From: FCB group bacterium
GTDB lineage: Bacteria; Hydrogenedentota; Hydrogenedentia; Hydrogenedentales; SLHB01
NCBI GenBank assembly: GCA_034004565.1
Contig: JAVEWL010000099.1
Coordinates: 1-11,706 of the forward strand
Reading direction: 5' to 3'
DNA: 11,706 bases
In this document: one piece after another, positions 1 through 11,706 of the stretch
Position numbering within the stretch: position 1 is the first letter of the stretch
Layout: each line of letters starts with the position of its first letter
Notes under the pieces: generated by a model
What the model was told of the DNA's origin: nothing
Databases searched by the model: none
What the model saw: only the letters and a program-made list of their open reading frames with translations
Position numbers and translations under genes: made by a program

Positions 1-43
1 CGTGGTTGCAGTTCTTTGAGTCTTTGTGGCTTTGTGGTGATCT
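1..43 (+). repeat. Truncated copy (tail end) of the repeat family that forms the 5316..5925 palindrome. It has the same orientation as the right arm there (5859..5925) and continues leftward off the window.
   Basis: Bases 1-10 'cgtggttgca' are identical to 5859-5868. Bases 30-43 'tttgtggtgatctt' are identical to 5908-5921. The intervening 20-mer matches the right-arm 18/20-mer unit at about 16/20, and one 18-nt unit is missing relative to the right arm. The copy abuts the cobA-hemD stop codon (44-46). Confidence 0.6.
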
Positions 44-1558
44 TTATCTTCCGGGCCAGTTTGTGATGGCTTCGACTAGGGAGGGGATGTCGTGGGTGGG
101 GGGTTCGATGGCGATGGGGATGCCGAGGTCTTCGGCGGTTTTTCGGGTGATGGGGCCGATGGCGGCGAAGGCGGTGGTTTGGGCGAGGGTGTGGAGGCGG
201 TCGGGGCCTACCATCTCGCAGAAGTTCTGGACCGTTGACGAGCTGGTGAAGGTGATGAGCTCGGGGTTGTATTTTACGAGGGCATCGGCGAGTTCGTTGG
301 AGGACTCGGGGCGCATGGTGCGGTAGGCGACGAGTTCTTTCACTTCGGCGCCGCGTTTGCGCAGCTCGACGGGGAGGAAGCTTCGGGCGATGTCGGCGCG
401 TGGGAGCAGGAAGCGTTTGCCTTCGAGGGGGCCTTCGGCTTTGACGAGGGCATCCAGGAGATCTTCGGCGACGTATTTCTCTGGGATGAGGTCGACACGC
501 AGGAAACGTTTGCGGATGGCCTCGGCGGTGGCGGTGCCGATGGCGCAGAGTTTCACGCCGGCAAGGTCGCGGCCGTCCTGGCCTAGGGCTTCCATGCGGT
601 CGAAGAGCATGTCGGCGCCGTTGACGCTGGTGACGATGACCCAGTCGTAGTCGCCGACATAGCCGAAGGGCTCGGGTTCGTCGGGCGGGGCGATCTGGAT
701 CGTGGGGAATTCGAAGATGTCGGCGCCGAGCGCGGCGAGGCGCTTGACGAGATCGCTGGCCTGGGCCTTGGCGCGCGTGACGACGATGCGGCGTCCGAAC
801 AGCGGGCGGCTTTCGAACCAGCTTATTTGATCGTGGAGGGAAACGACGTCGCCGACGACGGTAATGGACGGCGGCTGGACTTTTTCGGCCTCGCAGCGTT
901 CGACGATGTTGGCAAGGGTTCCGACGACGGTGCGCTGCTTGGGGTAGGTGCCCCATTCGATGACGGCCACGGGGGTTTCGGGCGCGCGGCCGAGTTCGAT
1001 GAGGCGGGCCGCGACGCGGGCGAGGCCTTTGACGGCCATATAAAGGACGAGGGTGCCGTTTGTGACGGTGCGCAGGGGATCGGGGATGCCCTGGGGACTG
1101 TCGGGGTCGCCGTGGGCGGTGATGAAGGCCACGCCGGCGGAGACGTTGCGGTGGGTGACGGGTATGCCCGCGTAGGCCGGTACGGCGATGCCGGCCGTGA
1201 CGCCGGGGACGACTTCGAAGGGGATGCCGTGCTGCGCGAGGAGGAGTGCCTCTTCCCCACCCCGGCCGAATACGAAGGGGTCGCCGCCTTTGAGCCGCAC
1301 GACGCGCGAGTAACGGCCGGACATCTCGACGAGGAGGCGGTTGATCTCTTCCTGGAGGAGCGTGTGGCGGTCGGTGGTCTTGCCGACGAACACCTTCTCC
1401 GCGTGCGGCGGACAGAATTCGAGGAGCGCCTCGTTCGCGAGGTAGTCGTAGATGACGACGTCGGCGTGTTCGAGGCACTCGCGTCCGCGCAGGGTCAACA
1501 GTCCCGGGTCACCGGGGCCCGCGCCGACGAGATAGACTTTTCCCTGGACGCGACTCAT
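44..1558 (-). CDS. cobA-hemD: Bifunctional uroporphyrinogen-III C-methyltransferase / uroporphyrinogen-III synthase (CobA/SUMT N-terminal domain fused to HemD C-terminal domain), 504 aa.
   Basis: The N-terminus has the SUMT hallmarks VYLVGAGPGDPGLLTLRG...ADVVIYD...RLKGGDPFVFGRGGEE. The C-terminal half matches the HemD fold (GRRIVVTRAKAQASDLVKRLAALGADIFEFPTIQI...). The start is chosen at MSRVQ (ATG 1556-1558) because it forms an ATGA overlap with the hemC stop. The 19 codons upstream in the ORF track overlap hemC and are unlikely to be translated. Confidence 0.85.
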   Translation of the reverse strand: MSRVQGKVYLVGAGPGDPGLLTLRGRECLEHADVVIYDYLANEALLEFCPPHAEKVFVGKTTDRHTLLQEEINRLLVEMSGRYSRVVRLKGGDPFVFGRGGEEALLLAQHGIPFEVVPGVTAGIAVPAYAGIPVTHRNVSAGVAFITAHGDPDSPQGIPDPLRTVTNGTLVLYMAVKGLARVAARLIELGRAPETPVAVIEWGTYPKQRTVVGTLANIVERCEAEKVQPPSITVVGDVVSLHDQISWFESRPLFGRRIVVTRAKAQASDLVKRLAALGADIFEFPTIQIAPPDEPEPFGYVGDYDWVIVTSVNGADMLFDRMEALGQDGRDLAGVKLCAIGTATAEAIRKRFLRVDLIPEKYVAEDLLDALVKAEGPLEGKRFLLPRADIARSFLPVELRKRGAEVKELVAYRTMRPESSNELADALVKYNPELITFTSSSTVQNFCEMVGPDRLHTLAQTTAFAAIGPITRKTAEDLGIPIAIEPPTHDIPSLVEAITNWPGR

Positions 1559-2475
1559 CGGATGGCCGCGATGATTTCGGCCGCTCCCTGCCGCAGGAGC
1601 TCGTCGGCGGCCCATTGGCCCAGGTCTTCCGGTTTCGCGGCGGGGGCCTCGATCTGTGTTTTGAGGAGCTTCATGCCGTCGAGGCTGGCGACGATGGCGG
1701 TGAGCACCATCATGTCGCCGTTCACGCGACCGAGCGCGCCGACGGGGACCTGGCAGCCGCCTTCGAGGACGGCGAGCAATGTGCGTTCGGCGCGGGTCTC
1801 GAGATCGGCGTTGTGGTCCGAGAGGCGCTGAAGCAGAGCCTTCAATTCATCGTCGTCCTCGCGGATCTCGATGCCGAGCGCGCCCTGGCCGACGGCGGAG
1901 ACCATGACCTCCGGTTCGATGACCTGGCGGATGACGTCGGCGTGGCCGAGGCGGTGGAGGCCCGCGCTGGCCATGATACCGGCGTTGGGCGAATCTTCTC
2001 TGATCTTGCGCACGCGCGTGTCGACATTGCCGCGCAGGTCGATAATGTTGAGATCGGGGCGCACGGCGCGGAGTTGCGCGGCGCGGCGCAGGCTCGATGT
2101 GCCTACGGTCGTGTCCGGCGGAAGCGCTTCGAGCGAATCCCATTTGAAGCATACCAGCGCGTCTCGCGGATCCTCGCGCGGCGGGACGGCGCCGAGGGCG
2201 AGGCCGTCGGGGAGCGTCGTGGGGAGATCCTTGAGGCTGTGAACCGCGAGGTCGGCGCGTTTTTCGAGCATGGCCACCTCGAGTTCCTTGGTGAAGAGGC
2301 CCTTGCCGCCGATGCGGGCGAGGGGCGCGTCGAGGATGCGGTCGCCCTTGGTCGAGACGATCTCGATGTCGACGGTGAGGCCGGGCTCGAGGGCGCGCAG
2401 GCGATCCGCGACCCAGTTGGACTGGGTGAGGGCGAGTTGACTGCCGCGCGATACGATGACGATACGGTTTCTCAT
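1555..2475 (-). CDS. hemC: Porphobilinogen deaminase (hydroxymethylbilane synthase), 306 aa.
   Basis: Strong HemC-like sequence throughout (MRNRIVIVSRGSQLALTQSNWV..., GGKGLFTKELE, dipyrromethane-cofactor Cys region LEGGCQVPVGALG). The start ATG 2473-2475 overlaps the hemA stop (ATGA) and the stop 1555-1557 overlaps the cobA-hemD start (ATGA). The long N-terminal extension in the 654-aa ORF is a GC-rich open frame overlapping hemA and is not coding. Confidence 0.9.
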   Translation of the reverse strand: MRNRIVIVSRGSQLALTQSNWVADRLRALEPGLTVDIEIVSTKGDRILDAPLARIGGKGLFTKELEVAMLEKRADLAVHSLKDLPTTLPDGLALGAVPPREDPRDALVCFKWDSLEALPPDTTVGTSSLRRAAQLRAVRPDLNIIDLRGNVDTRVRKIREDSPNAGIMASAGLHRLGHADVIRQVIEPEVMVSAVGQGALGIEIREDDDELKALLQRLSDHNADLETRAERTLLAVLEGGCQVPVGALGRVNGDMMVLTAIVASLDGMKLLKTQIEAPAAKPEDLGQWAADELLRQGAAEIIAAIR

Positions 2476-3746
2476 GGGGTTTCTTTCAGTCCGAATAAAC
2501 GTTTCACCAAGTGTAACACCGTGTGCGGGTCGTGGTGACCCATTTCGCGCTTGAGCTGGCTCATGGGGCGCTGGAGGATCGTGTTCACGATGCGCTTGGA
2601 CATGTACTCGATTTCTTCGCGTTGCTTGTCGGTAAGGTCCGGCATTGAGGAGAGCGTCTTCGCGAGTTCGCGTTCGCGGATGGTGTTGAGCTCCTGCGAC
2701 ATCTCGACGATGGTCGGTTCCGCTACGAGCGTGTGTACCCAATGCATGAACTGGGCCACACCCTCGTCGACGATCTCGATGCAGCGGTCGATTTCCTGGC
2801 GGCGCGCTTCCTTGTTCTGCTCGGCGACCTGCTGGAGGTCGTCCACGTCGTAGACGTAGACGTTGTCGAGATCGTTGACCGCGGGATCGACGTTGCGCGG
2901 GACGGCGATGTCGATAACGAACATCGGCTGCTGGGCGCGCTGTTTCAGGGCGTGGTGGAAGTGATCCGGGCGCAGGATGTAGCCGGGCGCGCCGGTGGAC
3001 GCAACGACGATATCGGCTCGGTGCAGGTGGTCTTCCATGACGTCGAGCGCGATGGCTTCGCCGCCGTGCATATCGGCCAGTTCCTGTGCCTTCTCGACGC
3101 TGCGGTTGACCATGAGCAGGTTTCCGGCACCCTTCGAGACGAGGGTTTTCAGGGTAAGCTCGCCCATCTTCCCGGAGCCGACGATCATGACCGTCTTGCC
3201 TTCGAGGTTCATGAAAATGGAGACGGCGAGGTCGACGGCCACGGAGCCGATGGAGACTTTGCCTTCGCTGATGGCGGTGTGCGTGCGCACGCTCTTCGAG
3301 ACCGAAAAAGCCTTCTGGAAGAGGGCGCTGATGATCTTGTCGGTGCTCTGTTCGGCCTGGGCGAGGAGGTAGGCGTCGTGGACCTGGCCGAGGACCTGGT
3401 TCTCCCCCACCACCATGCTGTCGAGACTGCACGCGACGCGGAACAGGTGGCCGACCGCCTCGTCTTCGGTGTATTCGTAGAGGTGATCGCGGAACTCGGT
3501 CTCCGGTATGCCGTGCCATTCGGAGAGGAACTTGCGCAGTTCGGCACAGAGCTCCAGGGGTTCGGTGGCGTAGCTCGCGTACAACTCGACGCGGTTGCAG
3601 GTGGACAGGATCACCGCCCCCACGCCGTCGAGCTGCTTGCGAAGGCGTTGCAGCGCATTCCGCGCCGCCTCGGGCGGGAAATGCAACCGCTCGCGAAGTT
3701 CGACGGGCCCGGTACGGTGATTCAGGCCTACAACGACGACACTCAT
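2472..3746 (-). CDS. hemA: Glutamyl-tRNA reductase, 424 aa.
   Basis: Typical HemA N-terminus MSVVVVGLNHRTGPVELRERL with the catalytic Cys region ILSTCNRVELY. It also has an NADPH-binding Rossmann motif (MIVGSGKMGELTLKTL) and a C-terminal dimerisation region. The start ATG 3744-3746 overlaps the upstream stop (ATGA). Confidence 0.9.
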   Translation of the reverse strand: MSVVVVGLNHRTGPVELRERLHFPPEAARNALQRLRKQLDGVGAVILSTCNRVELYASYATEPLELCAELRKFLSEWHGIPETEFRDHLYEYTEDEAVGHLFRVACSLDSMVVGENQVLGQVHDAYLLAQAEQSTDKIISALFQKAFSVSKSVRTHTAISEGKVSIGSVAVDLAVSIFMNLEGKTVMIVGSGKMGELTLKTLVSKGAGNLLMVNRSVEKAQELADMHGGEAIALDVMEDHLHRADIVVASTGAPGYILRPDHFHHALKQRAQQPMFVIDIAVPRNVDPAVNDLDNVYVYDVDDLQQVAEQNKEARRQEIDRCIEIVDEGVAQFMHWVHTLVAEPTIVEMSQELNTIRERELAKTLSSMPDLTDKQREEIEYMSKRIVNTILQRPMSQLKREMGHHDPHTVLHLVKRLFGLKETP

Positions 3747-4591
3747 TCGCCCATGCCCCAGAAATTGTAGTTGTTCAGTTGGCTCAGGCCGAGGATCAGG
3801 TGGGCGACGAGAAGCACGCCGAACCCGATGAAGACGAAATAGGCGAGCTTGGGTCCGCGCAGGCGGCCCAGGCGGCGTCCGTGGAACGCGGCGGAATAGA
3901 ACGTGGCCATGAGAAGGGCCATGATGATTTTCGGGGCCATCCACCAATTCGGGCCGAGCAGTTCGCTTTCGACATAGGCCCAGATGAAACCGAGGATGAG
4001 TGTGATGGCGAAGAGGGGATAGCCGATCTTGATCAGGCGGAACAGGATGCGGTCGAGTTGCTCGAGCGACGGTAGTTTCTGGAAGAGGCCCAGGGTCTGG
4101 CGGTGCTTGAGGCGATTGGCCTGGAAGACATAGGCCACGCTGGTGACGCTGGCGACGAAGAACAGGGCGTAGGCGAGAAAGGCGAGGCCTACGTGGACCG
4201 TGAGGAACAGGCCCTGGAGTTCGCGGGGCTCGTCGCGCAGGTAAATGTGCGCCACGGTGGCGTTGAGCAACGCGATGAGGGCCACCGGGGGAAGGTAGAA
4301 GCTCAGCAGCGAACCCATGCGCTCCTGTTTCGCCACGATGACCATGACGATGGTGCTCAGCAGCACGAAAAGATTCAGGGAATCGGTGACGTTCGTGAGG
4401 GGAAGGCGTTCCCATGCGGTGATGCGCAGGGCGAAGGTGACGAGGATGAGCACGGCGCCGGCCAGGGCGATCCCGTACGCGGCTTTGAGGAGGCGATCCT
4501 CCTGCCGACGCAGGTAGGCCGCAGCCACGATCGCCGCGACGGCGTAGAAGGCCACGCCGGCGTAGAACGTGAAATAAATGGCGCCCATCAT
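3743..4591 (-). CDS. HemX-like / CcsA-family (cytochrome c assembly protein family) polytopic membrane protein, 282 aa.
   Basis: About 8 hydrophobic helices and a Trp-rich segment (LLGPNWWMAPKII). It sits between sirC and hemA as an in-operon membrane protein, like hemX of Firmicutes hemAXCDBL. The start is chosen at MMGAIYF (ATG 4589-4591) to give an ATGA overlap with the sirC stop. The 58 upstream codons in the ORF track overlap sirC. The family call rests on composition and context, not on a search. Confidence 0.6.
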   Translation of the reverse strand: MMGAIYFTFYAGVAFYAVAAIVAAAYLRRQEDRLLKAAYGIALAGAVLILVTFALRITAWERLPLTNVTDSLNLFVLLSTIVMVIVAKQERMGSLLSFYLPPVALIALLNATVAHIYLRDEPRELQGLFLTVHVGLAFLAYALFFVASVTSVAYVFQANRLKHRQTLGLFQKLPSLEQLDRILFRLIKIGYPLFAITLILGFIWAYVESELLGPNWWMAPKIIMALLMATFYSAAFHGRRLGRLRGPKLAYFVFIGFGVLLVAHLILGLSQLNNYNFWGMGE

Positions 4592-5229
4592 GATCGTTCG
4601 TCCCCCGTGGCCAGTCCCGCCACTCGTTCGGATACCCAGGCTTCGCGTTCGGCGGGCGTAGCGCGTTTGAAGCGCTCGTAACCCTCGCGAGACGCGAATT
4701 CGGCGGCTATCCGTTCCCGCACGGCACGGTCCGTCGCGCGCTCCCGCACGCGCTCCCGCACCCATCCTAGAAAACCCACGTAATCGGCATAATCTTCCGG
4801 GAAAAGATCTTCGAGATCACGGCGAAGGCGTTTGGCCAGGGCCGGGGCCTCGCCTGCAGTCGATATGGCGATGGCGAGGGGGCCTCGGTCCAGGACCGAC
4901 GGTACGTGGAAGTCGCACAGGTCGGGCGCATCGACCACGTTGCAGAGGATGCCGTTCGCGCGGCAGGCTTCGGCCACGGCGCGATTGACGGCGGGGTCGT
5001 CGGTGGCCGCGACGGCGAGGAAGGCGCCGGCCATGTCGTTGGGCTCGAAGGGACGGTGACGGAGGACGGTGTTCTGCAGCGCTTCGAATTCGGGGAGGAA
5101 TTTCGGGCTTACGACGGTCAGGCGCGCGCCGGCGGAAAGCATGGGAAGTGCCTTGCCGAGGGCGATTTTTCCGCCGCCGACTATGAGGCAGGGTCTGCCT
5201 TCGAGTTTTATGAAGATGGGATATGTCAT
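4588..5229 (-). CDS. sirC: Precorrin-2 dehydrogenase / sirohydrochlorin ferrochelatase (siroheme synthase N-terminal-domain protein, SirC/Met8-like), 213 aa.
   Basis: N-terminal NAD-binding motif IFIKLEGRPCLIVGGGKIALGKALPMLSAGARLTVVSP is typical of the CysG N-domain / SirC family. The start is MTYPIF (ATG 5227-5229). The first 17 codons of the track ORF run into the intergenic region. Confidence 0.8.
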   Translation of the reverse strand: MTYPIFIKLEGRPCLIVGGGKIALGKALPMLSAGARLTVVSPKFLPEFEALQNTVLRHRPFEPNDMAGAFLAVAATDDPAVNRAVAEACRANGILCNVVDAPDLCDFHVPSVLDRGPLAIAISTAGEAPALAKRLRRDLEDLFPEDYADYVGFLGWVRERVRERATDRAVRERIAAEFASREGYERFKRATPAEREAWVSERVAGLATGDERS

Positions 5230-5268
5230 TTGGGCCCGGCGCCTATGCCTTTCCTTAACAGTGGAAAC

Positions 5269-5298
5269 AGCATACCGCATGGTTGGGATTGAAGCGAA
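5269..5298 (-). promoter_or_regulatory. Candidate sigma70-like promoter for the hem operon (minus-strand -35 TTCGCT, 18-nt spacer, -10 TATGCT).
   Basis: The plus-strand revcomp of 'agcgaa' (5293-5298) and 'agcata' (5269-5274) gives these hexamers. They lie in the 86-nt gap between the sirC start and the edge of the palindromic repeat. This is weak sequence-only evidence and no clear SD precedes the sirC ATG. Confidence 0.2.
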
Positions 5299-5334
5299 AT
5301 GGGCGGAGCCGGGGAGTAAAGATCACCACAAAGG

Positions 5335-5370
5335 CACGAAGACACAAAGAACCACGAAGACACAAAGAAC
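5335..5370. repeat. Perfect 18-nt tandem repeat x2 (cacgaagacacaaagaac) inside the left arm. The right arm carries one clean unit (5887-5904) plus a degenerate one, and the copy at 1-43 has one unit.
   Basis: Read directly from the sequence. The copy number varies between arms and copies, as in a minisatellite. Confidence 0.8.
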
Positions 5371-5586
5371 AGCAAGAGAAAGGCAACCACGAATGGGACG
5401 AATGGAACGAATCTGAGCCGGGGTAGCCCGAACGCGGAGGACTGTCCCCAACGGAAAACGGGGACTGTTCCACTTTTGGCAAGCGTCCAACTTCCTGCGA
5501 AGCCCACGGCTTGCCTTGGCCCAAACAGTCAAACGGTCCCGCTGACCAAAAGTGGAAACTGTCCCTGCTTTCCGGGAAGGGAATGG

Positions 5587-5613
5587 GTCTTATGAGTCTT
5601 ATAGGTCTTATGG
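5587..5613. repeat. 9-nt tandem repeat x3 (gtcttatga / gtcttatag / gtcttatgg) at the symmetry centre of the palindrome.
   Basis: Read directly. The local AT content is much higher than the ~65% GC surroundings. Confidence 0.75.
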
Positions 5614-5931
5614 GCACCTATTCCCGTTTTGGTCTATAGGGTTCATTTCGTTCATGGGGTCCATTGGTTTTGGCGGAAAGCGGGGACAGTTTCCACTTTT
5701 GATCGGTGGGGCTGATTGGCTGTATGGGCGGTTGCTGGGCTGTGGGCTTCGCAGGCAGTTGGACGCTTGCCAAAAGTGGAACAGTCCCCGTTTTCCGTTG
5801 GGGGCAGTTCTCCGCGTTTGGGCTACCCCCGCTCAGATTCGTTCCATTCGTCCCATTCGTGGTTGCATTTCCCGCTTTTCTTCGTGGTTCTTTGTGTCTT
5901 CGTGCCTTTGTGGTGATCTTCTGAATGAAAA

Positions 5932-5964
5932 CACCCCCAAGTCATGAAGCCGACTTGGGGGTGC
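5932..5964 (-). terminator. Rho-independent terminator of the NfeD-flotillin operon.
   Basis: A perfect 12-bp stem (5932-5943 cacccccaagtc / 5953-5964 gacttgggggtg) encloses a 9-nt loop. On the minus strand it is followed by TTTTCATT (revcomp of 5924-5931). It lies 18 nt downstream of the flotillin stop (5982-5984) and directly abuts the palindrome's right end. Confidence 0.6.
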
Positions 5965-5981
5965 CACAAGAGTCGTTTGGG

Positions 5982-7661
5982 TTAGGCTTGGGCGGTGGGG
6001 GTGATGGGGTCCGCCTTGGGTGTTTCGGGGACGGGGGTCAGGGTGCCGTTCTCGGTGAATTTCACGAGGGTTTCGGGGAGTTCGATGCCGCCGATGTCTT
6101 TCATGACCTGGAGCATGGGCGGCAGGGTGCGGGCGAAACCTTGCAGGAAGTTTGAGGTGACGCTGGTGCCGTTGTTGGCGCCGTTTTCCCAGACGATGAC
6201 CTTATCGAACTTGATGTTCGAGATGGCTTTCGCGGCGGTTTCGGCGAGGTTGTCGAGGTGCTCGAGCATGAGTAGCTTGAAGGCCTGGTCGGAGCCGCCG
6301 GCGGCTTTGATAATGGCGTGGAGGCCTTCGCCCTTCTTGGCGAGGATTTCGTATTGGCCTCGGGCCTCGGCTTCGAGCTTGGCGAAGATGGCGGACGCCT
6401 CGCCCTGAGCTTCGATGCGGCGGCGTTCGGCGTCGGCTTCGGCCTCGACGATGGTGCGGGCCTTGTCGGCCTTGGCGGGGGCTTCGACCTCGGCACGGCG
6501 CTCGGCTTCGACCTTCTCGGCCTCGGCCAATGCGGCACGGGCCAGTGCGTGGTTCTGGGCTTCGAGCACAGCGGCCTCGGCTTCGCGCTTGCGCGTCTCG
6601 CCCAACTGGTAGGCCTCGGCCTGCTTGACCTGGAGGGCGGCGGTGGAGGCGGCGACGCGCGCCTTGGCCTCGTTCTCGCCTTCGACGGCCAAGGCGTTGG
6701 CGCTGGACTGGCGCACGTTGAGTTGCGCGTTGGCGTCGGCGACGTGGGCCTGGGATTCGTTTTCGCCGGCGACGGCCTTGGCGTTGGCCTCGGCGATGGC
6801 GATACGCATCTTGCGCTCTTCTTCTTTGACTTGCGCGTCGCGGGCGTAGACGGCGGCCTGCTCGGCGACCTTCTGTTCGCGGTCGAGTTCGGCGATGCGG
6901 ACGGCCTGATCACGCTCGGCCTCGCGCATGCCGATTTCGCGCATCTTGCTGGCGCTGGCGACTTGCACGACCTTTTCGCGGTCGGCTTCGGCCACGCGGA
7001 CCTCGCCGAGCTTGACCTGCTCGGCCACGTCGCCGCGGGCCTGCTGGATGGCCTGCGAGGCGGCCTTTTGTCCGATAGCCTCGATGTAGCCTGAGGCGTC
7101 GGTGATATCGGTGATGTTCACGTTGATCAGCACGAGGCCGATCTTGCGCAACTCGGGTTCGACCGAGTTCTGGATGTTGGCGAGGAAGCTTTCGCGGTCG
7201 CGGTTGATGTCTTCGATGTGCATCATCGCGATGACCTGCCGGAGCTGCCCGAAGATGATGTCTTCGGCCTGCTTCTTGATCATGTGCGTGTCGAGGCCGA
7301 GCAAACGGATAGCGGCATTTTGCATGACTTCCGGCTCGGTGCCGATCGCGACGGTAAAGACGCTGGGCACGTTCACGCGGATGTTCTCGCTCGACAGCGC
7401 GTCCTTGAGCGGCACTTCGATCTGGATCGGTTCGAGGCTGAGGTAGGCGTAGTCCTGGATCAGCGGGATGACGAAGGAGGCGCCGCCGTGGATCGTGGTA
7501 CAGGATTTGCCGCCGCCCACTTTGCCGTAGACCACGAGGACCCGGTTGCTCGGGCAGCGCTTGTAGCGCTTGGCGAGGAGCAACACGAATCCGGTGAATA
7601 GCACCAGTACGATAACGGCAAGCATTACCGCGAATGGGTTGGCCATGATGCTGTTAGGCAT
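5982..7661 (-). CDS. floT: Flotillin-family protein (SPFH/band-7 domain, FloT/YuaG-like), 559 aa.
   Basis: An N-terminal TM helix (FAVMLAVIVLVLFTGFVLLLA) is followed by an SPFH domain and a long Ala/Glu-rich coiled-coil (EA repeat region). The C-terminal tail is as in long flotillins. A strong SD AGGGAGGAG lies ~10 nt upstream of ATG 7659-7661 and the gene is paired with an upstream NfeD. The symbol is by analogy to B. subtilis floT, not an orthology claim. Confidence 0.88.
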   Translation of the reverse strand: MPNSIMANPFAVMLAVIVLVLFTGFVLLLAKRYKRCPSNRVLVVYGKVGGGKSCTTIHGGASFVIPLIQDYAYLSLEPIQIEVPLKDALSSENIRVNVPSVFTVAIGTEPEVMQNAAIRLLGLDTHMIKKQAEDIIFGQLRQVIAMMHIEDINRDRESFLANIQNSVEPELRKIGLVLINVNITDITDASGYIEAIGQKAASQAIQQARGDVAEQVKLGEVRVAEADREKVVQVASASKMREIGMREAERDQAVRIAELDREQKVAEQAAVYARDAQVKEEERKMRIAIAEANAKAVAGENESQAHVADANAQLNVRQSSANALAVEGENEAKARVAASTAALQVKQAEAYQLGETRKREAEAAVLEAQNHALARAALAEAEKVEAERRAEVEAPAKADKARTIVEAEADAERRRIEAQGEASAIFAKLEAEARGQYEILAKKGEGLHAIIKAAGGSDQAFKLLMLEHLDNLAETAAKAISNIKFDKVIVWENGANNGTSVTSNFLQGFARTLPPMLQVMKDIGGIELPETLVKFTENGTLTPVPETPKADPITPTAQA

Positions 7662-8250
7662 GAATCGGGGTCTCCTCCCTTACGCACTCCACTTCCACCG
7701 TGTTGGGGCCTACGATGCCCACAACAACCACGGGCACGCCCGTGGGTATGCTTTCCTTCGAGGTGGTGACGGCCTGGCATTCGACGGTACGGCTTTGCAG
7801 GTTGAGAAAAACCTTGCCTGCGCCCGCGTGGCCGGCGGGTACGGTGAGGTAGACCGTGCCCTGGTGTCCGACGGCGCGCTCGATGTGGACCGTGCCGTCG
7901 TCGCGCAGGCCCATCATGAATCGCATGACCCAGGCGACGGCGAAGAGGGCCACCGCTCCCGCGGCCAAGGCCATCAAGATGGTGGTGGCGTCGGACACGC
8001 CGGCGGTTTTCGCGGACAGGCCCGTGAGGCCGAAGATGGCCAGCGCGGCCGTGACGGTGCGGAAACTGAGTACGCTGAAGAAGTGAGAGCCTTCGCCGTG
8101 GTCGACGTGATCCGTGTCGACGTGGACGTCGCCTCCGAGGTCGTGGACCTCGCCGTCGAAGTCGTGGCCCATTCCGGTGAGGGTCATCACGAATTGCACG
8201 AGCACGATGACTGACCCCACGATGGCGCACACCATGAAGATCGCGGTCAT
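7654..8250 (-). CDS. NfeD-family membrane protein (short YuaF-like form), ~198 aa, partner of flotillin.
   Basis: Three TM helices precede a C-terminal OB-fold-like beta region (GTVYLTVPAGHAGAGKVFLNLQSRTVECQAVTT...VVVVGIVGPNTVEVECV). It overlaps the flotillin start by 8 nt. The start is chosen at MTAIF (ATG 8248-8250), which has GGGGAG 9 nt upstream. ATG 8257-8259 is an alternative start. The 227-aa track ORF has an unlikely N-terminal extension. Confidence 0.8.
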   Translation of the reverse strand: MTAIFMVCAIVGSVIVLVQFVMTLTGMGHDFDGEVHDLGGDVHVDTDHVDHGEGSHFFSVLSFRTVTAALAIFGLTGLSAKTAGVSDATTILMALAAGAVALFAVAWVMRFMMGLRDDGTVHIERAVGHQGTVYLTVPAGHAGAGKVFLNLQSRTVECQAVTTSKESIPTGVPVVVVGIVGPNTVEVECVREETPIHA

Positions 8251-8505
8251 AGATGCCATCTCCCCTGTCTGCCGTCGCAGAAACCGGACGCCGCAAACGC
8301 TGCACGCCTTGGGTCCTGGCGAACACGCAGCCAACACGAGTATCAGTGTAAACCATTTGCGGGGAAATTGGCAGTCGGTTGGGTCAACGCTCCGGGCGGT
8401 TTCGAGCGCGGAACAGAAGGAACCGTTTTGCGGCTCCGAGTATAGTAGGCAACGTCCGGCACAGACGCAGAATACGCAAAGGTTTGTTTTTTGGGGGGAT
8501 TCTCG
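8251..8505. promoter_or_regulatory. Divergent intergenic/promoter region between the NfeD-flotillin operon (-) and the ICMT-DUF218 gene (+).
   Basis: A 255-bp non-coding gap lies between two divergently oriented starts. No specific -35/-10 elements could be assigned with confidence. Confidence 0.3.
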
Positions 8506-9666
8506 ATGGCGGTGCTGCTATTTCGCGTGGTGCCGGGGTTGTTCTTTCTGTTGTACCTGATCCTGCTGGCGGTTCAGGGGGCGCGCTGGTCCGTTTGTGC
8601 TCGTATTCTAACTTGCTCGGGGTGGCGCGATCGCGTGGCGTGCGGACTGTTTGCGCTGGGGCACGTTCCGGCGGCGTTGTACTTCAGCGGCCGGACGCTG
8701 GATCCGTTCTATGTGCACGTTCCGGTGGTGCTGCGCATGGGCGGACTCGCGCTGTACATGCTGGGGATGGTGCTGCTGCTCTGGGCGTACGTGACGCTCG
8801 GCAGGAACTGGTCGCCGCTGCTTGAAATCCGGAAGGGACATACCCTCACCACGTTCGGGCCGTACCGCTACGTGCGGCATCCGATGTACATCGCGCTTGG
8901 GGGGATTGGACTCGGCATGCTGGTTTTGTCCGCGAATGCGCTGGTGGGGCCTGCCTTCCTTATTACGTACGTTTTCCGGGTCTTTCGTGTCGGCGCCGAA
9001 GAGGACATGCTCCGGGATCATTTCGGCGGTGACTTTCAGGCGTACGTGGGACGGACGGACCGTTTCGTTCCGCGCGTTGTGAGCAGGATCGCCGGGAGAC
9101 GCTGGGCCCGCGCAACAGCGGCAATGGTATTGGCGGCCCTGCTCCTGGGTTGTGGAGCGATTGTACGAGCGGGTCTTTCGGACGAGATTCAGAAGGCGGA
9201 TGTGGCGGTCGTGCTGGGGTGTCGTGTGTATACCAATGGCGAGCCCGGCCACTCGTTGAAATCCCGGCTCAACGCGACCGTTCGCCTGTACCGCCAGGGA
9301 TGGTTTCCGGAGATTGTCGTGAGCGGTGGAATGGGCCGCAACAATCAGGATGAAGCGACCATCATGCGGCGCTACCTTGTCGCGCACGGCGTCCCGGCCG
9401 AGCGCATTCACACCGACAGCGAGGGCGTGAACACGCGCGCCACGGCCTTGCACGCGGCCGAGTTCCTGCGGCGGCGCGGCCTGAAGAGCGCCATGGTCAT
9501 CACGCAGTTCTACCACGTGCCGCGTGCGCAGATGGCCTTGCGCGAGGCGGGCGTCAAGACCGTGTATGGCGCGCACGCACGGTATTTCTCGTGGCACGAT
9601 GCCTATGCGGTTCCGCGCGAGTTGGCGGCGATTCTGTGGTACCGCCTGCGCGAGGCCGTGGCGTAG
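8506..9666 (+). CDS. Fusion membrane protein with an N-terminal isoprenylcysteine carboxyl methyltransferase (ICMT)/phospholipid-methyltransferase-like domain and a C-terminal DUF218 (YdcF/SanA/ElyC-like) domain, ~386 aa.
   Basis: The ICMT-family signature is ...LTTFGPYRYVRHPMYIALGG...EEDMLRDHFGGDFQAYVGRTDRFVP. An extra TM helix precedes a DUF218 signature (AVVLGCRV...LKSRLNATVRLYRQGWFPEIVVSGGMG...DEATIMRRYLVAHGVPAERIHTDSEGVNTRATA...MVITQFYHVPRAQMAL). The start is taken at ATG 8506 (MAVLLF), preceded by a GGGGGG run. The track's 8491 start is a TTG and would add 5 aa. Confidence 0.8.
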   Translation: MAVLLFRVVPGLFFLLYLILLAVQGARWSVCARILTCSGWRDRVACGLFALGHVPAALYFSGRTLDPFYVHVPVVLRMGGLALYMLGMVLLLWAYVTLGRNWSPLLEIRKGHTLTTFGPYRYVRHPMYIALGGIGLGMLVLSANALVGPAFLITYVFRVFRVGAEEDMLRDHFGGDFQAYVGRTDRFVPRVVSRIAGRRWARATAAMVLAALLLGCGAIVRAGLSDEIQKADVAVVLGCRVYTNGEPGHSLKSRLNATVRLYRQGWFPEIVVSGGMGRNNQDEATIMRRYLVAHGVPAERIHTDSEGVNTRATALHAAEFLRRRGLKSAMVITQFYHVPRAQMALREAGVKTVYGAHARYFSWHDAYAVPRELAAILWYRLREAVA

Positions 9667-9779
9667 TGAGATGCGGGTTCAAGCGCAGAGGCACTTTTTT
9701 GCGGGCGGCAGGTTTCGTGAAATGCAGGGACTGCACGGACGAAAGAGTTGGCATGGCGCTTTGGGCTCCCCTCACCTTG

Positions 9780-9801
9780 CCCCTCTCCCCAGGGAGAGGG
9801 G
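9780..9801. other. Stable GC-rich hairpin (9-bp stem cccctctcc / ggagagggg, loop ccag) in the convergent intergenic region. A related imperfect hairpin lies at ~9853-9890.
   Basis: Read directly. No U-tract follows on either strand, so this is not a canonical intrinsic terminator. It may be a REP-like element or an mRNA 3'-end stabiliser. Confidence 0.3.
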
Positions 9802-9903
9802 ACAAGACTCCAGCAGGTTGTAGCGAGAGGGTACACGCGTAGTCAGGTGACCTTCTCCCCCAACAGGCTTTCTTGCCTTTGGGAGAGGGTATTTGTAGAG
9901 GGC

Positions 9904-11703
9904 CTATTGTTTTGTTGGGTGAAGTTCCCGGACGTTTACCCTGTTGGGGTCGGGCAGGGGATCGTTGCCGAGGGGGATCACGGGACGGGCGTCGGGCGCC
10001 TGCTGGATGTGGTACCGCTGCTTGCCGTCCGGTCCCACGGCACCTGTGGCGTAGACGGGGGTGACGTAGGGGCTTTTTGCGATGTTCTTGTCCTGCACTT
10101 GTATGCGAAGGTCGTTGGTCTTCATTCCCTTCGGAACGACGATGATGCCTTCGGCGTAAATGGGGCTGGACATGGCGGCCACCTTCACGCTGCCATAGGG
10201 CGAGCCGGGTTCGGCGGGTTCGACGACGCGCATGCGATAGACGGAATAGGCTTCGGGCTTTTGCGGCACTTTTGCGACGACGCTTTCCTCGTCGATGCGC
10301 CTGGAGAAGATGGGGAGTCCGTTGTAGAGGATCTCGAGCTTCTTTCCTTTGGCGTTGCTTACGCCGGCGATCAGATCGACGGCCACGCCGATGGGCACGG
10401 CGCCGCCCATTCCGACGTCGACGGTTCCGTCGCGCATGGCGTCGGCGTCGAAGGCGACCTGTGGCCCGTCCAGCCCGGATGACACGAAGGTGCGGCCCTG
10501 GCGGAGTCCATCGATGACGCCTTTGACCGACTTTTCGTCCGCGAGGATGTAGGTGACGGGTTGCGCCATGGGAACCTTTGGCGAGCCGGTCATGCTGCCG
10601 GCAATGGGCGCTTCCTTGCGGCCTTGCACGAGTTCGTAGTCCCAGAAGAGGGCGGCCTGGCCGTTTGCGGACAGATTTCTGGTGGCCACCGCGGCCGCGA
10701 TGGAGTGGATGAGATCGTTCTTTCTGGTCTTGGCTTTCAAGTCTCCGGGAAGCGTTTCCAGCGAGGCGGGGGGGACGCGGTTCCATTCGCGGCACCACAC
10801 CTGGGTGGCGTTGGCATAGGGCACGTAGAGCTTCCAGCCGGTTTCCGGAAAGCAGGGGTGGGCGATGGCGAAGATGCCGCCCTGGGCCTGTGTCAGGCGC
10901 GCCACGGCTTGCGCGTGTGTGTGTGTGCTGGCGGAATCGGGAAAGGTCTGAGGGCCGTAAATCAAGGCGTACCCGCGCTTGGGATCGCCCCAGGCCAATG
11001 CGGGAATCAGCACCACCGATTTCGAGGTGAACTCGGGATCGGCTGCCGCCTCGAGGGTATTGGGATCGGCGATGGCGAGGAAGTCCAGGTTCAGGGCTTC
11101 GGCGCGCCGGACGAGTTCGCCCACACTTTCGGTGCCTTGCCCATACTTCGATTGGGCATGGAGTTCGCCGCGCAGCCATTGTTTCTTCTTGTTCAGCGGT
11201 TGCGAGGGAAAGGTCATTTTCTCCCGGCCGGGAATGCTGGCCGGATCTTCGGGGTTGGTGCCCGCCTCGATCTCGGCGCGATCGATTGCCATGTCGAAGT
11301 CGCGGTCGAAGTCTCGCAGCATTCGTTTGCCCGCGGCGCCTTCCACTACGGAATACGTAATGGGCACGGTCTTTCCCGCGGCAATGTTGATGTCCATCGC
11401 GGTTACCATCAACGGGATTCCGTCTTCGATGGCGTAGACATATGCGCGGTGCGCGCCCGCGGGAAGGGCGCCCTGGCCCGTGCCCTTGGATACGGGAATG
11501 GTAGCCACTCTTTTATTCCCGTCGTAAACCTCGACACGGCCGTCCAAGGCGGTGTTGGCAATATTGGTGAGTGCGACCGACAGGGATCCGGTGTTATTGC
11601 CGGCGGGGCCGTTCTGAGCGGCCACCCGTGTGCACGGCACAACGAAGATTATGCAATGCAGAACTGTAAGTGTTCTTCTCACCTTGGATTGCCCCTTTCC
11701 CAT
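9904..11703 (-). CDS. Secreted PHP-domain (CehA/McbA-family-like) metal-dependent phosphoesterase/hydrolase, 599 aa. The start codon lies at the window edge.
   Basis: A signal-peptide-like N-terminus (RRTLTVLHCIIFVVPCTRVAAQ) precedes an acidic DRDFDMAIDRAE (Ca-binding-like) motif. A PHP-like motif block follows (WLRGELHAQSKYGQGTESVGELVRRAEALNLDFLAIADPNT ... IFAIAHPCFPETGW). ATG 11701-11703 leaves only 3 nt of upstream context, so the true start cannot be verified. Confidence 0.6.
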   Translation of the reverse strand: MGKGQSKVRRTLTVLHCIIFVVPCTRVAAQNGPAGNNTGSLSVALTNIANTALDGRVEVYDGNKRVATIPVSKGTGQGALPAGAHRAYVYAIEDGIPLMVTAMDINIAAGKTVPITYSVVEGAAGKRMLRDFDRDFDMAIDRAEIEAGTNPEDPASIPGREKMTFPSQPLNKKKQWLRGELHAQSKYGQGTESVGELVRRAEALNLDFLAIADPNTLEAAADPEFTSKSVVLIPALAWGDPKRGYALIYGPQTFPDSASTHTHAQAVARLTQAQGGIFAIAHPCFPETGWKLYVPYANATQVWCREWNRVPPASLETLPGDLKAKTRKNDLIHSIAAAVATRNLSANGQAALFWDYELVQGRKEAPIAGSMTGSPKVPMAQPVTYILADEKSVKGVIDGLRQGRTFVSSGLDGPQVAFDADAMRDGTVDVGMGGAVPIGVAVDLIAGVSNAKGKKLEILYNGLPIFSRRIDEESVVAKVPQKPEAYSVYRMRVVEPAEPGSPYGSVKVAAMSSPIYAEGIIVVPKGMKTNDLRIQVQDKNIAKSPYVTPVYATGAVGPDGKQRYHIQQAPDARPVIPLGNDPLPDPNRVNVRELHPTKQ

Positions 11704-11706
11704 GCT

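Follow-up and report, generated by a model that had tools for sequence, protein, structure and literature searches.

How does a bacterium come to carry a palindrome of 606 bp between two ordinary operons? The question arises at positions 5317-5922 of contig JAVEWL010000099.1 from an FCB group bacterium of the Hydrogenedentota (assembly GCA_034004565.1), nucleotides 1-11,706 of which were analyzed and are called the window below. The gap between the hem and flotillin operons is occupied there by a non-coding composite palindrome, in which two arms of ~257 nt surround an asymmetric center of ~100 nt. An earlier note, made from the letters of the window, had described a near-perfect palindrome of ~610 bp in this gap, and the element was found where that note had put it. 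The explanation that we favor, with slightly more confidence than doubt, is that the element is an overgrown mosaic member of a multi-copy family of hairpin repeats in gaps just after genes, and that it would have grown outward, had its arms copied from one another, and come to insulate the operon that follows.

Layers of the palindrome and its surroundings

The palindrome is built from three inverted-repeat pairs. The outermost (I3, 5319-5360 with 5879-5920) is 42 nt long and 100% complementary; the next (I1, 5378-5510 with 5739-5871) covers 133 nt at 95%, and the innermost (I2, 5519-5574 with 5674-5729) covers 56 nt at 84%. Complementarity thus declines from the outside to the inside and is absent at the center. 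Aligned end to end, 5317-5575 and the reverse-complemented 5674-5922 match at 222 of 248 positions (89.5%), with 26 mismatches and 12 gap positions. The earlier note had assigned the arms ~185 bp and ~90% identity; the identity holds, and the arms extend inward to ~5575 and ~5674. What it took for an inner inverted repeat of 31 bp is the 56-nt pair I2. Its AT-rich center is real, with a GC content of 46-47% against 60-74% in the flanking genes. The parts of the element, with the evidence in parentheses, are as follows.

5317-5922, no strand: whole composite palindrome (pairs I1-I3, arm alignment 89.5%, fold z of -32 to -36)
5317-5377, plus: left outer arm, tag (T)AAAGATCACCAC and then CACRAAGA octamers (sequence, I3)
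5378-5412, plus: second layer, left, GCAACC and three nonamers, (ACGAATGGN)x3 (Tandem Repeats Finder at 5389-5412; aligns with 12530-12635 of L009, the closest relative)
5378-5510, plus: mid arm, left, GC-rich, pairs with 5739-5871 (I1)
5452-5478, minus: motif B copy 1, CAAAAGTGGAACAGTCCCCGTTTTCCG (pattern match)
5519-5574, plus: inner arm, left, pairs with 5674-5729 (I2)
5547-5574, plus: motif B copy 2, pairs locally with copy 1 or across the center with copy 3 (pattern match)
5575-5673, no strand: asymmetric center, G+T-rich on the plus strand, with two different T-rich nonamer arrays and a small hairpin (composition)
5674-5701, minus: motif B copy 3 (pattern match)
5674-5729, minus: inner arm, right (I2)
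5739-5871, minus: mid arm, right, GC-rich (I1)
5771-5797, plus: motif B copy 4, identical to copy 1 (pattern match)
5837-5871, minus: second layer, right, the same GCAACC/nonamer array as on the left (Tandem Repeats Finder at 5837-5860; alignment with the L009 hairpin)
5872-5922, minus: right outer arm, tag and octamer array, beginning just past the U-run of the flotillin terminator (I3 arm 5879-5920)
5906-5916, minus: TCACCACAAAG within the right outer arm (sequence match)

Each outer arm consists of a tag, AAGATCACCAC, followed by CACNAAGN octamers. The left one is 10 nt longer than the right, a whole-unit indel, and the two are otherwise perfectly complementary; Tandem Repeats Finder reports an 18-nt unit repeated twice at 5335-5370 of the left arm. 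Motif B, of 27-28 nt, follows the pattern CAAAAGTGGAA(N2-3)GTCCCNGNTTTCCG, which has four exact matches in the order - + - + where none is expected by chance. A local hairpin of copies 1 and 2 forms when a single arm is folded by itself. Within the center, Tandem Repeats Finder detects 3.6 copies of the unit ATGGGTCTT at 5583-5614, and a terminator-like site lies on the plus strand at 5610-5627.

Folding of the whole element, which the earlier note had suggested as a check, goes far beyond shuffled controls: -486 kcal/mol for the plus-strand RNA (z = -36), -439 kcal/mol for the minus-strand RNA (z = -32), and -284 kcal/mol for single-stranded DNA (z = -35). The element is non-coding, as the earlier note had it, and matches no Rfam RNA family. 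Its longest open reading frame (ORF; 131 amino acids [aa], 5552-5947) has no relatives among 5.8 billion proteins, and we rejected protein coding on this ground; an ORF that mirrors it on the other arm arises from the palindrome's symmetry. A scan of the window against Rfam 15 at E ≤ 1 returned a single match, to the plant microRNA MIR9486; its 32.5 bits fall well short of the model's threshold of 100, and the long hairpin stem accounts for it. At gathering scores, 15 related loci gave no Rfam matches.

The minus strand carries both flanking operons and nearly all long ORFs of the window; the exception is 8491-9666 (DUF218/ICMT), on the plus strand. Read along the minus strand, the SPFH/flotillin gene (7661-5982) is followed by its terminator (~5966-5926), the palindrome (5922-5317), an 88-nt leader, and the hem operon, which comprises a precorrin-2 dehydrogenase-like gene, a CcsA/HemX-like gene, hemA, hemC, and cobA-hemD. 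The element thus lies between transcription units, as the earlier note had stated. That note had also placed it beside a promoter and a terminator: a terminator does adjoin the element, as a separate hairpin, but no sigma-70-like promoter was detected in 5000-6200. Neither end of the palindrome is followed by a U-run in the sequence, and its flanks, GGAGTA on the left and CTGAAT on the right, carry no direct repeat that would mark a target-site duplication. Three features of the surroundings bear on what follows.

5926-5966, minus: canonical intrinsic terminator of flotillin, outside the palindrome, with a stem of at least 14 bp and then UUUUC (fold -30.1 kcal/mol, z = -4.8)
5230-5316, minus: 88-nt leader from the palindrome to the first hem start codon (5229), of which only 5230-5279 aligns with the relative (BLAST against L009)
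1-46, minus: third, truncated arm copy, whose tag overlaps the TAA stop codon of cobA/hemD (pair I4, alignment, sequence)

The hem start codon at 5229 was deduced from a 213-aa orthologue and an exact match to L015, an independent contig.

The third copy, which the earlier note had recognized at the start of the window, is defined by a fourth pair (I4): bases 11-46 are complementary to 5317-5352 over 36 nt at 92%. Bases 1-10 (CGTGGTTGCA) also match 5861-5870, the junction of the right arm into the second layer. The copy lacks some octamer units that are present in the main arms, and it differs from them by whole-unit indels. Three arms within 11.7 kb share the tag and a non-repetitive junction, TGCAACCACG, into the second layer.

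As for the neighboring genes, the best named relatives of the flotillin protein are from Candidatus Hydrogenedentes. Two long minus-strand ORFs of the window, at 9554-11703 and 7625-8356, have no Pfam match. The first is 541-599 aa long, and its counterpart in the relative has only a weak Metallophos match; the second (243 aa) lies just upstream of flotillin and in the relative is called as 197 aa, overlapping the flotillin start.

The same site in the closest relative

The closest relative, contig L009 (contigs L010-L012 are identical to it; L numbers denote the contigs and loci compared with the window), has the same gene order, with 80-83% nucleotide identity on both sides of the site. Between flotillin and the hem operon it carries a 256-aa PPK2 gene (11757-12527) and then a 106-nt hairpin of ACGAAT-type tandem units, and the BLAST alignment of the window with L009 stops at 5279. 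The 606-bp element is not conserved syntenic sequence. The earlier note had allowed that the element might be unique to this locus and simply part of a conserved syntenic region; with a further copy in the window and no such element at the relative's site, that possibility falls. The gene for PPK2 (polyphosphate kinase 2), present here in L009, is absent from 5317-5981 of the window.

The L009 hairpin (12530-12635) and the window element's second layer (GCAAnnACGAAT...ACGAAT...) can be aligned, with 26 invariant columns. This alignment suggests that an ACGAAT-repeat hairpin was already at the site in the common ancestor of the window strain and L009. Long palindromes of short tandem units occupy most intergenic gaps of L009, including the following.

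21061-21387: palindrome after hemL, arms of 147 nt
17885-18110: palindrome after cobA-hemD, at the site that matches the third copy of the window, arms of 102 nt
6973-7108: palindrome in the gap after gyrA, arms of 68 nt
12530-12635: palindrome after PPK2, arms of 43 nt
4199-4281: palindrome between gyrB and gyrA, arms of ~30 nt

The first two of these palindromes end in AAAAGCTTCACCAC(A/C)A, the same type of cap as AAAGATCACCACAAAG in the window. The consensus of the tag is particular to each genome and common to its sites, which indicates that the sequence moves or is homogenized among sites. Orthologous repeat sites of the window and L009 are more divergent than the flanking genes.

Two further observations concern these sequences. 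Between hemB and hemL, L009 carries a 127-aa gene of the 23S_rRNA_IVP family (19232-19615) bracketed by inverted arrays of AGTTCAA/GGTTCAA heptamers (19161-19199 and 19625-19738), with ~5 units on one side and ~16 on the other, so that it looks like a small cassette with tandem arms. The GATCACC in the window's tag (5323-5329 and 5910-5916) equals the 3'-terminal GAUCACC of 16S rRNA, and the opposite arm carries a Shine-Dalgarno-like GGTGATC. We took this anti-Shine-Dalgarno mimicry as coincidence, since the relative's tag, AAGCTTCACCAC, shares only TCACC.

Tagged hairpins behind stop codons in other genomes

Among representative genomes, the tag, written as AAGATCACCACAAAGNCACNAAG(AC) or AAGATCACCACAAAGNCACNAAGAC, has six exact matches, in metagenome-assembled genomes (MAGs) that represent four phyla and are named as Terriglobia, Holophagaceae, Bryobacteraceae, Bacteroidota, Anaerolineales, and Aureliella; by our own arithmetic, 23 fixed bases would have ~0.02 chance matches in 596 Gb. 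A slightly shorter tag was found at 52 metagenome loci, and the tag core TCACCACAAAGNCACNAAGNCAC at 15 loci on viral contigs, of which several share a contig. (An initial viral scan with a 17-mer had returned two chance matches in unrelated coding sequence and was set aside.) An inverted partner accompanies 60 of the 81 tag occurrences, and the resulting hairpins span 55-363 nt with a median of ~89; at 606 bp, the window element is the largest seen. In the others, the arm stands alone or a contig end truncates the locus. Arms in the family are arrays of small tandem units, the CACNAAGN octamers, with the tag AAGATCACCAC as a cap, and a variable core lies between them. The outer boundary is sharp and recurs at about 60 loci as any base (N) and then, across the boundary, AAGATCACC.

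Position relative to genes follows a rule. By crude ORF calls, and with some near-duplicate loci in the sample, 32 of 38 tag ends lie just past the stop codon of an ORF in the same orientation (P = 2e-5), at a median distance of ~14 nt, and seven tags overlap the stop codon. The gene contexts are 10 convergent, 11 co-directional, and 1 divergent. Both copies in the window conform: the third copy overlaps the TAA of cobA/hemD, and the main element follows the flotillin terminator. This position fits a role in termination or in protection of mRNA 3' ends and, equally, selection that removes insertions from promoters.

Conservation within the stems is uneven. The conserved CAC and AAG positions pair at 89-100% across the family and the variable positions at 47-66%, which indicates that the conserved feature is mainly the unit sequence of each arm rather than strict base pairing. 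In L029, L050, L059, L072, L077, and L080, the arms enclose a GC-rich hairpin, with the U-rich arm directly after it, an arrangement that resembles a bidirectional terminator with extended arms; these are cited as individual examples, as an automated count was unreliable because the arm alignment absorbed the cores. Layered members also occur: in L080, L072, and L019, CACAGAG-type arms surround CACAAAG-type arms, which surround a GC-rich hairpin, so that their layering follows the plan of the window element.

The inner motif of the window element, CAAAAGTGGAAN{2,3}GTCCCNGNTTTCCG, has 0 matches in metagenome and viral contigs, and a BLAST comparison of the inner 498 nt with all loci fetched gave only weak matches, to ACGAAT-type repeats in L005 and, at E = 0.16, to L061. 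Collections of plasmid and phage records contain no match to the element family. A literature search with the octamer strings and repeat-related terms found no description of it, the matches being PCR primers; neither the cross-phylum tag nor the layered growth appears in the papers searched or in Rfam. Repeat density is two sites in the 11.7-kb window and ~4 extra arrays in ~350 kb of flanks from other genomes.

Several individual loci add to this picture. Several contigs classed as viral (IMG/VR) bear two or more tagged hairpins each: L072 and L077 come from one contig, L076 and L081 from another, and L080 and L071 each contain two copies within one locus. The two in L080 are ~2.4 kb apart, closer together than the one extra array per 90 kb roughly estimated for bacterial flanks, and the family may be carried by phages or have them as preferred hosts. 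L017 (1707-1760) and its homologues L024 and L057 differ by 71 nt that comprise the loop and right arm, with AAAGGA direct repeats at the borders; where the left arm stands alone, its end, ...CACAAAGGAG, is the Shine-Dalgarno sequence of the downstream gene. L065 (1989-2160) and L066 share the left flank and left arm, the loop of L065 holds an extra nested hairpin of ~110 nt, and rightward of the hairpin the two contigs have nothing in common, which suggests an insertion or deletion in the loop and a rearrangement breakpoint at the hairpin. The arms of L055 (2230-2437) are interleaved as A-B-C-A'-B', a pseudoknot-like order that simple nesting does not explain. In L005 (4990-5100), an Anaerolineales contig with a tagged hairpin, a second hairpin consists of CACGAAT-type units like those of the second layer in the window; unit types thus coexist in one genome beyond the Hydrogenedentota-like lineage.

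Proposed growth in place, its rivals, and known systems

How would such a structure arise? Outward growth in place is what we infer from the identity gradient, from the second layer common to the relative, and from the layered members of the family. The process would have started from an old center, around which an alternating cluster of four 27-28-nt motifs formed; the ACGAAT-repeat hairpin, also present at the site in the nearest relative, would have come next, and the tag arms would have been added last and outermost. A copying process in which one arm is the template for the other, whether by intrastrand template switching or by gene conversion at the hairpin, probably keeps the arms alike; the outer arms match perfectly even at positions that vary within the family, which argues for copying rather than selection on each pair. 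The tandem arrays probably change by slippage, given that copies differ by whole units.

What would the element do? In the direction of transcription it comes after the flotillin terminator, and the hem operon starts 88 nt beyond it, so RNA that reads through would fold into a duplex of ~250 bp; since a separate canonical terminator ends the flotillin transcript, the palindrome would act on read-through RNA only. Such RNA might be ended, blocked, or cut there, leaving the hem operon insulated. A backstop or insulator for the hem operon is the most likely effect; otherwise, the element is probably tolerated as selfish or neutral DNA. Its function at this site is probably modest.

Several observations weigh against this account of growth and insulation. 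Of the ~26 invariant columns that speak for homology between the second layer and the L009 hairpin, most are simple repeat. The arms of L065 and L066 agree but their interiors differ, so insertion into the loop could take the place of outward growth. With no U-tract after it, the palindrome is not a canonical terminator. The excess of G-U pairs on the plus strand could reflect a plus-strand RNA or, equally well, a mutational G+T bias. Finally, outward growth by template switching does not explain a tag of 23-25 nt that is identical across phyla, which points to horizontal spread or a sequence-specific partner. Tags common within a genome, across phyla, and on viral contigs require mobility or such a partner, and growth in place is insufficient for them.

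The earlier note had named a mobile element, a structured RNA, and a replication, partition, or recombination site as candidates. A classical non-autonomous transposon, of the type of miniature inverted-repeat transposable elements (MITEs) or of REPINs (hairpin-forming doublets of repetitive extragenic palindromes [REPs]), would be a 606-bp unit or a ~257-nt arm that an enzyme encoded elsewhere, such as an HUH/Y1 transposase recognizing the TCACCAC-tagged hairpin, mobilized and landed between transcription units. We think this unlikely but give it real weight because growth in place leaves the sharing of tags unexplained. The three arms with shared tag and junction, the sharp boundary, and the same site without the element in the relative all speak for it, as do the genome-specific tag consensus, typical of systems of REPs and REP-associated tyrosine transposases (RAYTs), and the presence of the tag in several phyla and viral contigs, which fits horizontal transfer; the small hairpins, moreover, are of REPIN size (PMC3116915). 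Against these stand the lack of a target-site duplication at the window element and in the two-ended family members inspected (L023, L025, and L038), of a transposase in a Pfam scan of the window ORFs, and of a Y1 transposase in a crude HUH...Y motif screen of 192 flanking ORFs. The interior without matches in the metagenome and viral scans also tells against a mobile unit, and the inward-falling complementarity and the second layer seemingly common to the relative fit growth in place better than one insertion. Nor do the ends carry GTAG or CGTC, the tags of both known REP superfamilies (PMC3733652).

A structured non-coding RNA locus, producing a long plus-strand hairpin RNA antisense to both flanking operons that might serve as an RNase III substrate or an antisense regulator, seems to us very improbable. 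The plus strand does fold better, by ~47 kcal/mol; 11 arm mismatches are transitions that give G-U on the plus strand and 3 do so on the minus strand; the asymmetric center itself pairs through G-U on the plus strand; and the terminator-like hairpin at 5610-5627 is on that strand. Yet the 12 transversion mismatches are almost as frequent as the G-U-compatible ones, the plus strand is G+T-rich throughout the element region in a composition profile, so that the G-U excess can be mutational, and neither an Rfam family in the window or the 15 related loci nor a promoter-like site in 5000-6200 was found. The inner sequence is not conserved elsewhere in the scans, and variable stem positions covary weakly across the family. 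We dropped the G-U asymmetry as proof of an RNA: the bias in the relative's palindromes is mixed rather than consistent, and the family search pattern biases the test.

More doubtful still is a site that acts as DNA, either a 100-nt center that inverts by recombination between the 250-nt arms or a cruciform for recombination, replication, or partition. Long inverted repeats around a short unique center permit inversion by homologous recombination, and the arms are of this form. The gene set recF-dciA-gyrB-gyrA is often near the bacterial replication origin, and the relative's locus lies ~3 kb downstream of gyrA in that cluster; gene content also varies at hairpins between related strains, as with PPK2 and with the rightward divergence of L065 and L066. 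The Pfam scan, however, found no recombinase, partition, or replication-initiator gene among the window ORFs, no promoter was detected in the center, and no change of sign in GC skew occurs within 4800-6400, the part profiled. Members of the family are scattered over ordinary gene ends in many genomes, unlike a unique chromosomal site. For this reason, and because the DnaA-box-like 9-mers of motif B and of the tag agree with the consensus, by eye, at only 6-7 of 9 positions, DnaA boxes and an origin were rejected.

An assembly artefact, that is, a fold-back chimera from amplification or the assembler, is barely credible. Independent assemblies do break within these palindromes: Logan contig L015 (1.8 kb) equals window 3554-5348 at 100% and ends 30 nt inside the tag and terminal repeat, and L010, which corresponds to 7026-18001 of L009, begins and ends near the centers of the palindromes at 6973-7108 and 17885-18110. 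But fold-back artefacts are exact copies of real neighboring sequence, whereas here the arms are imperfect and copy no neighboring gene, and the center is asymmetric. The same L015 reproduces the left junction, and elements of the same kind occur in many unrelated assemblies. The palindromes probably fragment MAGs of these lineages.

A bolder claim, possible though doubtful, is that TCACCAC-tagged CACNAAGN hairpins are a distinct, undescribed class of elements with their own mobilizing enzyme or binding protein and with onion-like growth around terminators. The 606-bp palindrome would then be an extreme end-state of layered growth, and such elements would cause genes to be gained and lost at the borders of operons and would break the assemblies of soil and sediment MAGs. 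Proteobacteria, Firmicutes, and cyanobacteria are the main groups from which intergenic palindromic repeats are known; the family, if confirmed, extends them to Acidobacteriota, Planctomycetota, Chloroflexota, Bacteroidota, the Hydrogenedentota-like lineage, and viral contigs, and ordinary vertical descent does not explain a tag of >20 nt common to those phyla. The layered anatomy offers a testable picture of how a short terminator-like hairpin might grow into a 600-bp palindrome, with the relative as a direct comparison at the same site. As the palindromes break contigs and coincide with differences in gene content (PPK2), they are relevant to MAG quality and to synteny analysis.

Compared with known systems, the element stands apart from invertible promoter switches, as no promoter-like site was found in 5000-6200 and no recombinase domain among the window ORFs. 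Integron attC sites were rejected: AAAGAAC and GTTCTTT, compared by eye, misfit RYYYAAC ... GTTRRRY, and the neighbors are housekeeping genes rather than cassettes. Bidirectional intrinsic terminators resemble the family in their position immediately after stop codons, often between convergent genes, and in the A-rich 5' arm and U-rich 3' arm. Pairs of uptake sequences (uptake signal sequences and DNA uptake sequences [USS/DUS]) form terminator stems in Haemophilus and Neisseria, and they share with the family a conserved word inside such stems. The window palindrome differs from an intrinsic terminator in its 250-bp stem, 100-nt loop, and missing U-tract; the canonical architecture belongs to the separate hairpin that precedes it on the minus strand (5926-5966).

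Short tandemly repeated repetitive (STRR) sequences of cyanobacteria are reportedly heptamers. Likeness lies in the intergenic arrays of 7-9-nt tandem units, sometimes inverted and hairpin-capable, and the inverted heptamer arrays of L009 are of STRR style. They differ in unit sequence, unit length, and host phyla and are not known to have a capping tag or a stop-codon rule. In PMC2670836, the term STRR is used together with "hairpin" and "intergenic." The 42-nt perfectly complementary termini of the window element are terminal inverted repeats of the kind that MITEs carry. MITEs such as Correia/NEMIS, ERIC, RUP, and Nezha are non-coding, 100-600 bp long, hairpin-forming, and present in several copies, with presence or absence varying between relatives. 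At the relative's site the element is missing, with PPK2 and a hairpin in its place, and L017 differs from L024 and L057 by half a hairpin. Unlike MITEs, the window element lacks a target-site duplication, no parent insertion sequence that shares its ends is known, and it is palindromic as a whole, not just at its termini, with layers of different ages.

Bacterial interspersed mosaic elements (BIMEs) of enterobacteria and Rhizobium-specific intergenic mosaic elements (RIMEs) of rhizobia are reportedly mosaic intergenic elements. Termination, protection of mRNA 3' ends, and protein binding have been proposed as their roles. Like them, the window element alternates palindromic units with other short motifs between transcription units: the four B motifs run - + - + beside distinct layers of octamer and nonamer arrays. 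The window element is not known to share sequence with the enterobacterial or rhizobial units, and near-perfect two-fold symmetry over 250 nt and tandem-octamer arms are not known as features of BIMEs.

REPs and REPINs number tens to hundreds of copies per genome. What marks a REP is GTAG or CGTC at one end of a palindromic unit 20-40 nt long (Di Nocera et al. 2013, PMC3733652), and REPINs are inverted REP doublets with a spacer that form hairpins and are mobilized by RAYT transposases (Bertels & Rainey 2011, PMC3116915). The present family differs in its tag, (A)AGATCACCAC or AAGCTTCACCAC (the sole GTAG, near 5425, is internal and off the unit boundaries), in the recurrence of that tag across phyla, and in arms made of 8-9-nt tandem-unit arrays instead of a single palindromic unit; the window element is, in addition, 606 bp long and multilayered, and no RAYT gene was found in the window or in the crude screen of flanking ORFs. 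REPs and the present family alike are extragenic, with two inverted units and a spacer that form a hairpin, a doublet design that most tag occurrences and the window element share; the small family members have a similar size (55-180 nt), singlets and doublets coexist, the consensus is genome specific, and both concentrate at the 3' ends of genes and seldom lie in gaps between divergent promoters. The earlier note's verdict of neither terminator nor REP element was therefore too strong, as position and architecture behave like REPs, REPINs, and BIMEs without their sequence tags. The element is best read as one of the familiar intergenic palindromic repeats, of a mosaic type like REPs, BIMEs, and MITEs.

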